DNA from: Leptolyngbyaceae cyanobacterium
GTDB taxonomy: Bacteria; Cyanobacteriota; Cyanobacteriia; Phormidesmidales; Phormidesmidaceae
Direction: 5' to 3'
DNA length: 64,000 bases
Assembly: GCA_965263355.1 (NCBI GenBank)
Contig: CBDHHL010000032.1
Location: 2,752,001-2,816,000, forward strand
Shown here piece after piece: positions 1-21,881 of this stretch. The position numbers and the translations under genes are program-made. Below the pieces are notes generated by a model, which did no database searches, had not been told where the DNA came from, and was given only the letters and a program-made list of their open reading frames with translations. The first letter of the stretch is position 1. The number at the start of each line of letters is the position of its first letter.

Positions 1-312
1 GAAGCCAATTTGTTTAACAGGGGTACGTCTGCTACCTACTTGAAGAGCGAAAAGATTATGGAAGCGATTGAATCCCCTTCCCTGAGAGTTCGTTTAAGAC
101 AAGTAGGACAAAGACCAGAGGCGAGGCGATATGTTAGTAGTCATTGACTGACGTGCGTTGGATAGTCGTCCTCTAGTCCTAGCAGACAAGCCCCATTTTT
201 TGACTTTACGCTTTTCTTGACAGTTGGGATGAGTGAAGATGAGGAGCGATGCGATATGTTAGTAGACATGCAGGCTGTCGCTCGTTGCATAGTCGTCTCC
301 TCGGTTCGTCCC

Positions 313-396
313 CCATAACTGCGTCGGTGCGGACGGAACCAAAGTTATTGCTGAGGATTTAAGGTTATCTGCCGCCGCACAACTTCATCGTTAGCC
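313..396 (+). other. attC-like integron recombination site #1
   Basis: R'' CCATAAC (313-319); arm GTCGGTGCGGACGG pairs imperfectly with CCGCCGCACAAC, with bulged bases; R' GTTAGCC (390-396); 45 bp before the hsdM start. Confidence 0.7.
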
Positions 397-8244: not shown

Positions 8245-8543
8245 AACCTTGAGACTCGATAGTAATAAGTCTTCTTGAGACTCAAGTTATCAGAAGTTTT
8301 ATAGTAAACTACATTCGTTTCGAAGGTTGTGGTAGGTTTGAGCGATTGTTCTTTACTCTCTTCCCAGCCTAAGATTGCGTATAGTGCCTAGCCAGTAATC
8401 CCTTCAAGCAGTAAGTTTTGCTAGTTTGTCTCTATGCATTCTTGCGGCGGGACGGGAGTAGGTGTTCAGATTGGTTAACAACTCTGCAGGAGCAGACGGA
8501 TTGCAAGAATCAGGCATTTTTCACAAAATACTGACCGCCACCC

Positions 8544-8627
8544 AGCTAACATTGCGTTGCAACGGCGGAGCATAAGCAGTTGATCAAAGGCTAAAGTTAC
8601 TACCGCCGTTGAACTTCGCCGTTAGCC
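8544..8627 (+). other. attC-like site #2 (near-canonical)
   Basis: AGCTAAC-N5-GTTGCAACGGCGG ... CCGCCGTTGAAC-N6-GTTAGCC, with one extrahelical G in L''. Confidence 0.85.
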
Positions 8628-9024
8628 ACTTAACAAATACAAGCAAAGGAGATGATGCAGGTAACACAAAATATAAGGAAGATTAAAGAATAATTATTAT
8701 TACCAAACTTAACAGGAACCTCATGGGAAGCGCTACGTCATTGTACTTATGAAACATAAGGTAATCCAGAATGAGAGGACGTGTACGTTTAGACTAACTG
8801 TGTTGCCAATGCTGAATAAATCAGTCGGAAAATAAAATTTATAAACACTTCAAAACTTTAAGATTGTTTAGATCTTAGCTAATTAAGAGATTTGAACGAT
8901 TTCATCAGAAAGCTCGGGTGCACATTTTTATCCGGATCTACTAATCCACTTCAGAATGTTTGCTCAATAAGCATTTCGTGTGGAACTTTGCTTCTGTATA
9001 AGTGTAAATAATGTGGTTGACAAC

Positions 9025-14547: not shown

Positions 14548-15063
14548 CTACCGCTCCAGCAGGCGGGGCATCAACTCCACCAGGTTGCAGGGCCGGTGGC
14601 GAGCATCTAGCTGGTCGTTAATCAGAGCATTCCAGCCGGTGCGGCAAGCCCCCGATGACCCAGGCAAGCAAAAAATATAGGTACCGTTGGCCACCCCTGC
14701 CAGGGCGCGGGACTGCACCGTGGAGGTTTTAATCTCCTGGTAAGACACCATCCGAAAGATTTCGCCAAAGCCGGGGAGTTGTTTATCCAGCAGGGGGGCA
14801 ATGGCTTCAGGAGTGCCGTCCCGCCCGGTCACCCCCGTGCCCCCAGTGGTGATGATGGCCTGCACCCCAGCATCGGCAATCCAGCGGGAGACCACCGCCC
14901 ATATTTGGTAAATATCGTCAGGCACGATCATTTTTTCGGCCAGGGTGTGGCCTGCGGTTTGCAGATGCTCCACCAGCAGTTGGCCAGATTTATCCGTGGC
15001 TTCGGTGCGGCTGTCGGAGACGGTGAGAATGGCGATGGGGACGGGGATAAAGGCGGTGGTCAT
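14548..15063 (-). CDS. moaB: Molybdenum cofactor biosynthesis protein B
   Basis: [26 protein letters not shown] and CNLV motifs. Confidence 0.92.
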
Positions 15064-15272
15064 AGGGCTTTTCTCTAATCAGGGCATGAGAAATTTATAC
15101 TACAAAGTTCCACATAAAGGGGCTTTTCTGGCCAAATTAACAAATACAACCAAAGGAGGTGATGCAGACAAAAAAAAGCATAAAGAAGATTAAAGAATAA
15201 AACAAAGGCAATCATGCAAAGGTTTAAGTCGGCATGATTAAATGTTAATCATTTTGAAAAGCAAAGGAGAAA

Positions 15273-15974
15273 TTGAGTATGCAAGTTAATTCAATTGAGT
15301 TACCAACACATTCTGAACTTCAGACAGTTCTTAAAGACGTTGTGAAAGAAAAAAATGGCGGATTTAGTTTAAATATGTGGGCAACGGTAGTTGATAGAGA
15401 CGGTGTCGTAAAAGCAGTTGTATTCTCAGGTGACGATAGAGGTGACCAATGGCCTGGGAGCCGTGTTATTTCAGCGCAAAAAGCAAATACAGCAAATGCG
15501 TTCAGTCTTCCAGGTTTATCATTGTCAACGGCAAATCTGTTTTCAGCAGTTCAGCCCGGTGGCAATTTATATGGTTTGCAGCACAGTAATCCGGTTGATA
15601 CTAATGTCGCTTATGGTGGGTCATCACATGAATTCGGTACAGAAAACGACCCGATGGTTGGTAAGAAAATCGGAGGAGTGAATGTTTTTGGGGGTGGTTT
15701 AGCTTTGTATCGTGAAGATGGTACGCTGCTTGGCGCAATTGGGGTTAGTGGTGATAGCTCATGTGCGGATCATAATGTCGCATGGAAAGTTCGTCATCAA
15801 CTCAAACTGGACTACGTACCTGCGGGGGTTAGCCCAAACCAGGATGACAATATTATTAATGACATTGTTGATGGTATTAGCTCCGGTGGTTGGGGACATC
15901 CTGCATGTTCGCCCGAAGCAACTGATATAGCTGAAAGTTTTTCCAAAACATATCCAGTGCGATCTAAAAAGTAA
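15273..15974 (+). CDS. GlcG/HbpS-family heme-binding protein (putative gene cassette)
   Basis: ATVVDRDG, ISAQKANTA and FGGGLALY...GAIGVSG motifs; ends 18 bp before attC #3. Confidence 0.8.
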   Translation: MSMQVNSIELPTHSELQTVLKDVVKEKNGGFSLNMWATVVDRDGVVKAVVFSGDDRGDQWPGSRVISAQKANTANAFSLPGLSLSTANLFSAVQPGGNLYGLQHSNPVDTNVAYGGSSHEFGTENDPMVGKKIGGVNVFGGGLALYREDGTLLGAIGVSGDSSCADHNVAWKVRHQLKLDYVPAGVSPNQDDNIINDIVDGISSGGWGHPACSPEATDIAESFSKTYPVRSKK

Positions 15975-15992
15975 ATTATTTTCGACAACAGT

Positions 15993-16064
15993 GGCTAGCA
16001 AGGTGCTGCACCTGATCGCTGTTCCGCTGCACTCCCTAACGGCAGGTGAGCTTCATCGCTAGAG
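15993..16064 (+). other. attC-like site #3 with AGC/GCT core
   Basis: GGCTAGC-N5-GCTGCACCTG ... CAGGTGAGC-N6-GCTAGAG; extrahelical G present. Confidence 0.7.
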
Positions 16065-16270
16065 GACAGAAACAATACTCAGAATGCTAGCGCTTGGTTT
16101 GCCCCTATGCCATATCCTATCAATGCCACTGTTGTCAGACCGAGGCCAATACAGACTGTTGCCAGAGCGCTGACCACTGACAGCCGCTGCATCACTCCAG
16201 TTCCCAAGAGAGATTTTCAAGCCAATGTTGTCCACAAACCGCAGCTAACCCCAGGCCAGTCAACACAGTG
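16058..16270 (-). repeat. Diverged, frameshifted copy of the 3' end and downstream flank of the RcnA-like gene (~18720-18930)
   Basis: Shared CAGACTGTTGCCAGAGCGCTGACCACTGACA core; similarity extends to the GCTAG of the attC R' boxes. Confidence 0.85.
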
Positions 16271-16282
16271 GTAATTTTCTCA

Positions 16283-16687
16283 TCACTCGACCTCCCAGTC
16301 CTCAATCTGTAACCCCTCAACGCGATCAAACTCTCGCGTATTGTGAGTCACCAAAATCAGATTATTAGCCAAAGAGATCGCAGCAATCTGCAAATCATAA
16401 GACCCAATCGGATTCCCCGCACTCGCCAGCTTCGCCCGAATCTGTCCAGCTAACAAAGCCGATTCATCCTCAAACGGTAGTGAAACAAATCGAGATAAAA
16501 ATGCCTGCTGTCGCTCTAATGTCCGCTTTGGGTTGTTACTCCGAAAAGCACCATAAAATAATTCAGCCTTCACCACAGAGCAGACGGCTATTTCCTCGGC
16601 GGGCGTCGCCAACAAACGATCACGCACCGACGCAGAACGACCATTCAGATACACCACACAAACATTAGTATCCAGCAGATAACGCAT
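16283..16687 (-). CDS. vapC: VapC-family PIN toxin
   Basis: YLLDTN, ELFYGA, IGSYDLQIAA and LVTHNTREF motifs. Confidence 0.93.
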   Translation of the reverse strand: MRYLLDTNVCVVYLNGRSASVRDRLLATPAEEIAVCSVVKAELFYGAFRSNNPKRTLERQQAFLSRFVSLPFEDESALLAGQIRAKLASAGNPIGSYDLQIAAISLANNLILVTHNTREFDRVEGLQIEDWEVE

Positions 16688-16947: not shown

Positions 16948-18467
16948 CTAATCAACATCCTCACCCAATTCCTTCAAAATACCCCGCAACTGAGTTAAAG
17001 CAGCCTCCAACTCAGTTATAGCCTCTCGGGCCAGGGTAGCCGGTTCAGGTAAATCCCCCTGCTCCTCCTCGCGATCCCCATTCAGCCAGCTGATATCTAA
17101 ATTATCGCCACGTTCAGCAATCCAATCACGGGAAAAACATCGAAATTCTCCTTCTTCCCCCATATCTTTTCGTTTAGCAAGGCTAGTGGCACTCCCTAAC
17201 GGGTCGGTGCCAAAAGCTACTTCAAACGCCTTAAAGTAATCACGGGTCAAAGCCGTCCGCTTCCCAAACTGAGGTGCATTTGCCCGTAAATCATAGACCC
17301 AGACTGCTTTCGTATTGGCCTTTGCTTTCTTACCACGAGTAAAAAACATTACATTTGTCTTTACACCCTGAGCATAGAAAATACCCGATGGTAAACGCAA
17401 AATCGTGTGTAGATTGCATTTATCCATCAAATCGGTACGAATCTGCCGCCCTACATTGCTCTCAAACAGCACATTATCGGGAAAAATTGCCGCTGTCCGT
17501 CCCCCAGGCTTCAGTCCCAGGTAGATATGCTGCAAAAAGCAAAGCTACTTATTGCTAGTAGGAAATTCAAAATCTGGACGCTCAGGCACTCCTCCACCCT
17601 TTTTGCTACCAAAGGGTGGATTAGTTACGATAAGAGACGCCTGCGGTAAGGCTTGCCCCTCAGGAGATAGCGTATCCCCATAGCGCATACCAGCCTTTTC
17701 AGGATCAGACTCTACACCATGCAGCATCAGGTTCATGCAGCCCATCCGAAATGTGTCTGGCACAAACTCCATGCCGTAGAAGGTATTGGTTTCGTACTTC
17801 TTCTTTTGGGCTGACGTCCAATTCTTAGGATTTTCATGCTCCCGGATATAGCGATTTGCCGAGATCAGAAATCCTCCGGTTCCAGCCGCTGGATCTTGAA
17901 TCACATCCTTCAGCGTTGGGCGCATCACATGCACTATGCTGTCAATCAACGCTCGTGGTGTGAAGTACTGGCCAGCTCCAGCCTTTGCCTCCTTGGAATT
18001 TCTGTCTAACAGCCCTTCATAAATCTCACCCATGCCCTCTTGCTTGGCGTTGTACCAGTCGAGCTTGTCAATCTCAGTGACCAGGGTGTTGAGAGTGGTG
18101 TCTAACAGCCCTTCATAAATCTCACCCATTTGGCGTTTACCAGTATCAATCTCAGTGACCAGTGTTGAGATGGCATTTTTTATATCGCATCAGTAAAAAT
18201 ATTTTGGACCGTCATAGAGCCTTCGTCACATAGATGCTCTAGAAGCCTCTTATAAAACTCAAGCTGTTCGGTTCCCTCTAGAGCCTCTAAATCATCCCAC
18301 CGATATCCTTCTGGCAACTTCAGCTCAATATCAGTCTCCTTTGCCATCTTCAAGAAAAGGAGATAGGTTAGCTCAGTTACATACTGGTGATAAACGATAG
18401 CCCCATCCTTAAGGATGTTGCAAAGATTCCAGAGTTTAGCAACGATGTCATGGGTTGTATTGCTCAT
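16948..18467 (-). pseudogene. hsdM: Second type I hsdM (EcoKI-like), in three fragments
   Basis: KLWNLC, GQYFTPR, DPAAGTGGF, TNPPFG and ILRLPSGIFYAQGVK spread over three ORFs, with scrambled internal duplications at ~18000-18180. Confidence 0.88.
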
Positions 18468-18639
18468 AGCTCCGGTATTTTACCGTTGCTTGGCTTTAGT
18501 TTCAGCCACTTCATGAGTATTAGCTATAGGATGCCGCTCGTTAGGATATCCAGGTCTCTCAACTCCGTCAACTCAATTGCCTTCGATTCCCTGTCAGACC
18601 CCGGATACGATCTCCCGTCAACGACTGCCTTGAACCCCC

Positions 18640-18726
18640 AGCTAACCAGTCGCTGCACCGGAACGCTCAAACATGGTTACTTCAGTCGCGAAGGTTATCT
18701 ATGTCCGGTGAGCTTAGTCGCTAGGT
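18640..18726 (+). other. attC-like site #4
   Basis: AGCTAAC-N5-GCTGCACCGGA ... TCCGGTGAGC-N6-GCTAGGT. Confidence 0.75.
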
Positions 18727-18774
18727 GACGGGTGACAAGAGTCAGGATGGCTAGCGACTGGTTTATCCCTATCC

Positions 18775-19160
18775 TTATCCCATCACCGCCACTGTGGTCA
18801 AACCAAGGCCAATGCAGACTGTTGCCAGAGCGCTGACCACTGACAAACGCTGTATAATTCCAGTTCCCAAGGGAGATTTTTCAAGCCACTGTTGTCCATA
18901 AACGGCGGCTAACCCCAGGCTAGTGAGCACGGATGCCAGTCCAAGGCTAAAGCCGCCTATAAGCACTAACCCATAGGCGATTTGGTGTAATGCGATCGCA
19001 CTCAACAACAAGACCAACGCCGATGGACAGGGCACCAACCCACCCGAAATGCCAATGGTCCCTAGGTTGATCATCATGGTGGTGATGCGTCCCCAAAATC
19101 GATGACCATGGTGATGATCGGGGTGATGGTGATGGTGATGCCCATCCCTCAAGCGCATTG
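18775..19160 (-). pseudogene. C-terminal part of an RcnA/HoxN-type Ni/Co transporter
   Basis: His-rich loop then GLVPCPSALVLLL and FSLGLA; the N-terminal half is missing. Confidence 0.75.
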
Positions 19161-19391
19161 TCAGCACATAAGTGTGGTCTTTTGGGGAGAGGCGAGGGCG
19201 ATCGCGCAAAACCGATTGCAGGCGCTGAGGCACTCCACGGGTTGCACCCTGACGGTTGGCGGCAGCTGCCCTTGTTGCTGACATTTCAACAAACTCTGCC
19301 ACAGCAGATATCCTCCCCGCTGGCCCAGGTGCTCCCGTTGACCAGCAGCAAAGGCGCAGGAGGTGCAAACAAACAAACTGTGCTGAGACAT
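19161..19391 (-). pseudogene. DUF1636 metal-binding protein, C-terminally truncated
   Basis: LFVCTSC and VECLSACNRFC motifs; stops at the junction with the RcnA fragment. Confidence 0.75.
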
Positions 19392-21753: not shown

Positions 21754-21881
21754 GGCGAAAGCACACCTCATCGGATTTCTAGATAGAATTCCCCGTGATG
21801 AGAATGGGGAGGTGGCTGGCGAAAGCACACCTCATCGGATTTCTAGATAGAATTCCCCGTGATGAGAATGGGGAGGTGGCT
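21754..21881 (+). repeat. Exact 64-bp tandem duplication
   Basis: GGCGAAAGCACACC...GAGGTGGCT at 21754-21817 and 21818-21881. Confidence 0.95.

Follow-up and report, generated by a model that had tools for sequence, protein, structure and literature searches.

How does an attC site come to carry AGC and GCT where the triplets AAC and GTT are regarded as "invariant", and is the DNA in front of it a complete cassette with a recombination specificity of its own? These questions arise from a stretch of cyanobacterial DNA of 64 kb, hereafter the window, in which the initial annotation had described a complete-looking cassette of about 930 bp with a compensated core and had offered either an integrase with relaxed core specificity or a drifted, immobilised cassette as the explanation. 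We consider it probable, though by no means certain, that a canonical cassette, which in relatives has a G|TTAGCCA start and the core TGGCTAAC, took its G|CT junction from the downstream DNA, later acquired a neutral A>G change and lost its left core.

The attC sites of the window

The site in question, attC #3, lies on the forward strand at 15992..16064, with R'' GGCTAGC at 15993-15999 and R' GCTAGAG at 16058-16064, and the core letters claimed for it (GGCTAGC, and GCTAG at 16058-16062) are borne out. Its L''/L' stem has an extrahelical base, and the predicted crossover is at 16058|16059. A plain hairpin scan ranked it low among 239 candidates and missed attC #4 on the forward strand, and a covariance model built on 19 attC sites of the same family, with the window sites excluded, was used instead. 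This model matched attC #3 at all 92 positions (15992-16068; 54.6 bits, E 2e-12), and an Rfam search of the region returned 0 matches. The bottom strand is predicted to form an attC hairpin of the order R''-L''-L'-R', with the extrahelical base, an unpaired spacer and a core pairing probability of 0.85; its folding energy is not better than that of shuffled sequences (z 0.64). In place of the AAC/GTT triplets stands AGC/GCT, which is predicted to be paired. On the model match and the predicted fold, attC #3 is a real attC site. Because contigs of the two runs X1 and X2 cover 14935-16168 and 14935-16181 with zero differences from the window, the AGC is judged not to be a local assembly slip; these contigs are possibly the source of the window and hence not independent. 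The terminal loop (16031-16044) matches the hsdM coding region at about 17189-17202 exactly over 14 nt, probably by chance.

The covariance model finds four attC sites in the window, of which two have AAC/GTT cores: attC #1 at 312..396 on the forward strand, a degenerate site with 27.8 bits (model match 312-400), and attC #2 at 8543..8631, also forward, with 45.1 bits. Behind attC #2, at 8622-8693 (+), stand a canonical start TTAGCC and a leader of 70 nt of the same family, with no gene following. This start complements exactly the R'' that attC #3, 7.4 kb away, had ancestrally, and in run X2 the same start sits behind a different attC-like end. The model finds no attC between 8631 and 15992. 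The window holds no integrase (the best match of cyanobacterial IntI in a tblastn search has E 0.11), so that an intI beside the array, as in a complete integron, is lacking within the window; elsewhere TIGR02249 matched 2 of 5 cyanobacterial genomes, in a set of incomplete genomes, with G001 not among the two. The gene set of the window and its GCGATCGC repeats, which we take to be indicative of such a host, point to a cyanobacterium.

The right junction and the order of the core changes

Relatives of the cassette gene were collected as the best 80 genome and the best 80 metagenome loci, and five of these share the cassette flanks. L001 (89% amino acid identity) has the start TTAGCCA, R'' GGCTAAC and R' GTTAGAT; L100 (86%) has a G|TTAGCCA start, the inverse core TGGCTAAC and a shortened attC; L003 and L099 have a G|TTATTCA start and an R'' that is cut off. 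L098 (91% amino acid and 93% DNA identity) combines R'' GGCTAAC with R' GCTAGAT and is followed by the same downstream DNA as the window at 90% identity, while the left end of its cassette lies beyond the contig end. The recombinase adjoining the cassette of L100 is only 23% identical to IntI, which gives no support for reading L100 as an integron. The initial annotation had held that AAC/GTT in all homologues, together with a recombination-dead variant site, would speak against its reading, and AAC is indeed the R'' triplet in all three homologues in which R'' is intact (L001, L098 and L100). From this comparison AAC is ancestral and AGC, whose derived G is position 15998, is private to the window lineage, and GCT preceded AGC because L098 has the same junction as AAC/GCT. 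The first step in the history, a cassette family with AAC/GTT cores, is shown by the homologues.

The DNA that supplies the CT of the core, 16059..16266 on the reverse strand, consists of a flank of about 50 nt and the 3' end of an rcnA-like nickel/cobalt transporter gene. It is a second copy of 18721..18930 (reverse strand), likewise flank and rcnA-like 3' end, with 82% identity, and is 90% identical to L098; the name rests on a weak NCBIfam match (PRK10019), below cut-off, of the frame 18775-19368. The paralogous copy is preceded by attC #4 at 18639..18726 (+), a site overlooked earlier, which is of a longer attC type, scores 61.7 bits (model match 18639-18730) and has an AAC/GCT core that is uncompensated, with a predicted pairing probability of 0.01. 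It is joined at G 18720 to the downstream DNA with the same G|CT as attC #3. In both attC types the sequence is that of the type itself as far as 3 nt before the G, and from the G onward the DNA is common, and the right junction at the G is common to three copies. Between the window and L098 the junction from cassette to downstream DNA is identical although the genes differ by 7%, and the DNA beyond the shared junction differs, being VapBC and hsdM in the window and a MazEF-like pair in L098. By these alignments the CT belongs to the downstream DNA and not to the cassette. The AGC/GCT core claimed as a compensatory pair is predicted to pair; its partners are the R'' of the cassette and foreign downstream bases, not the cassette's own two ends.

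As a second step, an ordinary integrase would have recombined at the G beside the rcnA-like gene end and produced the AAC/GCT junction kept in L098 and attC #4. The junction itself can be read from the sequence, and integrase action at a G|CT secondary site is the likely cause; the pattern is as expected if it was so made, because the join would then fall at the integrase crossover point. The crossover has GCT and not the GWT of attG sites, and fits the looser GNT only; the CRGM motif found at +6 to +9 in E. coli hotspots is absent, and a similar CAGA stands at +9 to +12. Alternatively, the CT may descend from the TTAG start of an adjacent unit after drift, which would look alike.

No empty G|CT target was found in the 61 and 401 genomes searched. 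Relatives of ArgRS in 17 genomes reached at best 72% identity, with no DNA match at 1e-200, and moaB matches (19 of the 401 genomes, 64-75% DNA identity) stopped short of the upstream DNA, apart from exceptional pieces of 49 nt at 82% and 25 nt at 96%. An rcnA-like end occurred near none of 20 moaB loci within the flanks taken, and none of the 81 records matched in the plasmid collection covered 80% of the region. Two further candidates were rejected: the DNA behind the rcnA-like stop as half of an opposite-strand attC (AAC, 5 nt, GCT), unsupported by the model with filters off, and TTAGCTA at 18520 as the start of a 200-bp unit ending at attC #4, which is within chance (analogous heptamers occur at 1.6 per kb).

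Several features of this neighbourhood were recorded in passing. The rcnA-like 3' end recurs as a fragment, in the window at 16059-16266 and 18721-18930, in L098 at 846-1166 and 1946-2136 and also in L194 at 1502-1740; the fragment pairs bracket a toxin-antitoxin pair, VapBC in the window and a MazEF-like pair in L098, and the fragments of L098 and L194 end at the same GCGATGG...CCATCGC inverted repeat. The region looks like an accretion hotspot. In X1 the start of moaB (window 15056) and the rcnA-like end (18783) occur together on one low-depth contig, a hint that the intervening 3.7 kb of the window was accreted. Contigs of X1 and X2 differ from the window at 18097-18186, where a duplicate hsdM chunk is skipped, and at 19058-19104 (rcnA-like indels), so that an assembly error may account for the split hsdM; an exact 64-nt tandem copy at 21754-21881 is possibly another. 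A perfect 11-bp inverted repeat between R''/spacer of attC #4 (18644-18654) and the downstream flank (about 18752-18762) could compete with the attC fold.

Given an AAC/GCT junction, the third step is the change A15998G, which would restore core pairing; its place in the order is read from the homologues, and its cause has to be weighed. Between the attC of the window and that of L098, 10 of 69 bases are different, and transitions make up 8 of these. With five outgroup sites, three changes fall on the window lineage (all A>G), five on L098 and two are not assignable; one of the three is also present in L001 and is therefore doubtful. With two to five own changes in 69 attC bases, the clear ones A>G, the window lineage has changed at 3-7% per site. 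At this rate the odds of the pairing-restoring change under drift would be roughly 1 in 15 to 1 in 30, for a change that was spotted only in retrospect. We regard drift as the simplest cause of the AGC; correction of the hairpin by template switching, or selection, is also possible.

The same history with AAC converted to AGC by template switching between the hairpin arms or by selection would leave attC #3 once more usable by an ordinary integrase, either to accept new cassettes or to recombine with attC #2 7.4 kb upstream. We hold this to be unlikely; in its favour, the predicted core pairing rises from 0.07 with the homologue's base to 0.85 with that of the window, compared with 0.01-0.04 in the AAC/GCT sites (attC #4 and L098). 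The stem of the window attC is also better kept than that of L098. With IntI1, an unpaired GTT/ATC core recombined at 6e-6 against 2.2e-3, about 370-fold down, compared with a loss of only 2-6-fold for paired GCT (PMC2811028), and mutations that lengthen the identity shared by both arms of imperfect inverted repeats have been described in yeast (PMC3820800). The event is single, however, and attC #4 and L098 remain uncorrected; other R box mismatches persist in attC #3 (the last bases of GCTAGAG), and the other clear change in this site is A>G as well. Moreover, folE, moaB and further host genes would be lost if the site were excised with attC #2, and AGC/GCT appears in 0 of 163 surveyed cyanobacterial sites taken from the best 150 of 320.

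The left end and the body of the cassette

At the left end, the proposed start CTGGCCAA at 15128..15135 (+) follows moaB (14548..15063, reverse strand; TIGR02667 above cut-off), which is divergent from the cassette gene and whose upstream DNA probably forms the left junction. The hexamer CTGGCC (15128-15133) is preceded by T and not by G, and four homologous starts (after attC #2, L100, L001 and L003) read TTA where the window has CTG. In terms of the alignment, a T replaces the preceding G and one extra base follows, and the leader behind is 80-86% conserved. A second moaB contig, found in X1 and X2 at genome-like depth, aligns to the window up to 15135 and then diverges into other DNA; the left junction is here placed by the end of a contig alignment and not letter by letter at 15120-15135. 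It is thus likely that CTGGCCAA is moaB upstream DNA fused to the leader at a shared GCCA, replacing the G|TTAGCC left core, and in a fourth step a join at this short motif would have deleted the G|TTA.

That CTGGCC is nonetheless the true start, mutated in step with R'', the unit being self-complementary as (G)CT/AGC before its G was lost, appears to us highly improbable. The hexamer does stand at the homologous start position, and TGGCTAGC and CTGGCCA agree at 6 of 7 bases, but the proposal demands three substitutions and an indel within 9 bases, next to a leader conserved at 80-86%. The alignment of the second moaB contig also runs through this stretch, CTAGCC-like hexamers with at most one mismatch number 272 on the forward strand of the 64 kb (4.25 per kb), and GCT predates AGC, as L098 indicates. 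Two points run the other way: L001 also lacks a G before TTAGCC, so that the missing G is not special to the window, and the CT before GGCC matches the AG of R''. The reading of CTGGCC as a cassette start is not confirmed, given the T in front of it, the TTA of the homologues and the contig that aligns through 15135.

Nor is the idea of a complete unit supported. Where G|TTRRRY complementary to R'' and an attC or attI before it would mark the left core, the window has T|CTGGCC, with no G|TTA and no attC between 8631 and 15992. Because the left partner site has probably been lost, the 930-bp unit is predicted not to excise as a cassette.

Within the unit, the description as one open reading frame of the GlcG/HbpS type is confirmed. 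The gene at 15279..15974 (+) encodes 231 amino acids from an ATG at 15279 and matches the HbpS-like/GlcG haem-binding family (PF03928) with E 1.8e-13, at 51.1 bits against a gathering cut-off of 25; the protein is 91% identical to that of L098 and 89% to that of L001. As in a cassette with a single frame before R'', its stop lies at 15974 and R'' at 15993, and the gene has stayed open. A search of 14900-16300 for sigma-70-like sites on the forward strand, a weak test, found none. In the alignment the window gene is without the 18-codon hydrophobic N-terminal stretch of L100 and L003. The corresponding 54 nt, signal-peptide-like in these two, are missing from the three cyanobacteria-type copies (window 15279-15310), with two short TGA(G/A)TT repeats flanking the gap, and the protein may have become cytoplasmic. 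The leader at 15136..15278 (+) is about 80% identical to those of L100, L003, L099 and L098, and the alignment reported earlier between the start region and the DNA after R' of attC #2 is reproduced, with 86% identity over 64 nt (15137-15200 against 8630-8693).

In run X2 the depth of the contig with the cassette (window 14935-16181) is roughly double that of neighbouring contigs (56.8 against 28.7-30.9), which is not so in X1; a second copy of this block in the X2 sample is possible, depth being a poor measure. Of the two options first offered for this locus, that of a drifted, immobilised cassette is the one supported.

The rarity of the core and the demands on the integrase

How unusual the AGC/GCT core is was assessed with the same covariance model, which has matches in 70 of 101 cyanobacterial genomes (320 sites). 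For the tally of cores, the best 150 of these 320 sites and weaker neighbours in the same loci were realigned, giving 168 matches and, after removal of two reverse-strand shadows and three duplicates, 163 distinct attC sites, one truncated site among them possibly counted twice. In this set drawn from the best 150 of 320, the core is AAC/GTT in 155 sites, the others being two AAT/GTT, two with an R'' base missing and one each of AAT/ATT, AAC/GAT, AAC/GGT and AAC/GCT; in 3 of the 163, that is, AAC is kept and the middle base of R' is altered, and none has AGC/GCT. The tally leans canonical, since only AAC/GTT sites went into training the model and the list ends near 47 bits, a value that attC #3 would pass. 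The three sites with AAC and a non-GTT R' are L243 (G455:C68:1882-1958; GAT), L344 (G413:C18:31771-31847; GCT) and L266 (G385:C1:1480474-1480564; GGT); a canonical start, G|TTAGCCG, lies 1055 nt upstream of the L243 attC, which is what a cassette that ends at a secondary site should show.

Patterns of the family searched in a viral collection gave 0 stretches with AGC against 17 with AAC and 0 with GCTAG against 7 with GTTAG, and all 13 distinct sites among the 17 AAC stretches, when read through, end in GTT. The exact family pattern has five matches in 401 cyanobacterial genomes, all five AAC/GTT, and is absent from the five non-cyanobacterial genomes with the closest HbpS-like genes. Across these collections the AGC/GCT core is a rarity, and nothing points to a family of cassettes that share it. 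In the literature searched, a scope outside which most subscription journals lie, we found no description of natural AGC/GCT attC sites and no text with attC together with GCTRRRY, and among the listed papers on attC with quasi-palindromes or template switching none mentioned an attC site.

That the organism keeps up a family of AGC/GCT cassettes by means of an integrase whose core specificity is relaxed or shifted is, in our estimation, a very remote possibility. What speaks for it is the presence of GCT at R' in two of the four window attC sites against 1 of the 163 sites in other cyanobacteria (from the best 150 of 320), but both come from one duplicated downstream sequence and are not independent. 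It is further opposed by the AAC/GTT cores of attC #1 and #2, by the relatives of attC #2 in X1 and X2, which break at its borders into other flanks, by the viral and genomic pattern counts just given and by the window having no integrase in sight.

The published behaviour of IntI1 bears on the same point. It is reported to require only an identical first base in both partners, with a loss of 10^3-10^4 otherwise (PMC2811028), and the core triplet is described as not important per se (PMC5027507). In crosses with attI1, a compensated GCT attC reached 0.15 (aadA7) and 0.48 (VCRd) of wild type, and a normal attC with a GCT attI1, the double-stranded partner, 2.1 and 0.87 times wild type (PMC2811028). 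Two GCT partners reached only about 0.04 (PMC2811028), and a GCT-only system, by analogy, would work worse with IntI1. Because IntI1 tolerates GCT, we conclude by this analogy that neither the formation of the AAC/GCT junction nor the use of the AGC/GCT site calls for a special integrase. The relaxed specificity invoked by the initial annotation can thus be dispensed with, all three homologues with intact R'' being AAC and two of the four window sites AAC/GTT.

The locus can be set beside known systems. Insertion of cassettes into genomes, and single cassettes and small arrays lacking an integrase that arise in this way, are described with a site consensus of GWT (10.1101/2022.09.11.507474). 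Like those SALIN and CALIN at attG sites, the window has a gene and attC in host DNA with no nearby integrase, a right junction at the core G and downstream bases that are not cassette DNA; unlike them, it has GCT for GWT, lacks CRGM at 6-9 and shows a left junction that is not target-G plus TT, and its R'' appears to have changed since to match (10.1101/2022.09.11.507474). The engineered sites attC-aadA7-GCT and attC-VCRd-GCT have the same compensated AGC/GCT core, whereas attC #3 is natural, would have arisen in two steps via AAC/GCT and belongs to another attC family, of the L'' GCTGCACC type (PMC2811028). Secondary sites of IntI1 with GNT are described (PMC10127599), and GCT fits this minimal motif, while CTAGAT (L098) and CTAGGT (attC #4) agree with the extended GTTRRRY core in 6 of 7 positions; in contrast to the cases in that work, no integrase or empty site is seen here, and two attC types sit on paralogous copies of the target.

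As we read it, then, the locus holds a stranded cassette whose odd core is explained in two steps by published integrase tolerance, a conclusion of little consequence in itself. More speculatively, cassettes in these cyanobacteria could land recurrently at the G|CT behind the rcnA-like gene, and the mismatched attC so created could be turned, through selection or hairpin-templated correction, into an AGC/GCT site that works; we consider this doubtful indeed, but if true it would be a natural way for the "invariant" triplet of integrons to change and for an insertion off target to found a new array. The locus and its relatives provide a natural series for one cassette, from AAC/GTT (L001) through AAC/GCT (L098) to AGC/GCT (the window), from which it can be seen that compensation in an attC core does not have to imply a special integrase. 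Its members are ready substrates for asking whether secondary-site junctions remain recombinogenic, and a non-random correction, if true, would reveal how attC cores evolve.
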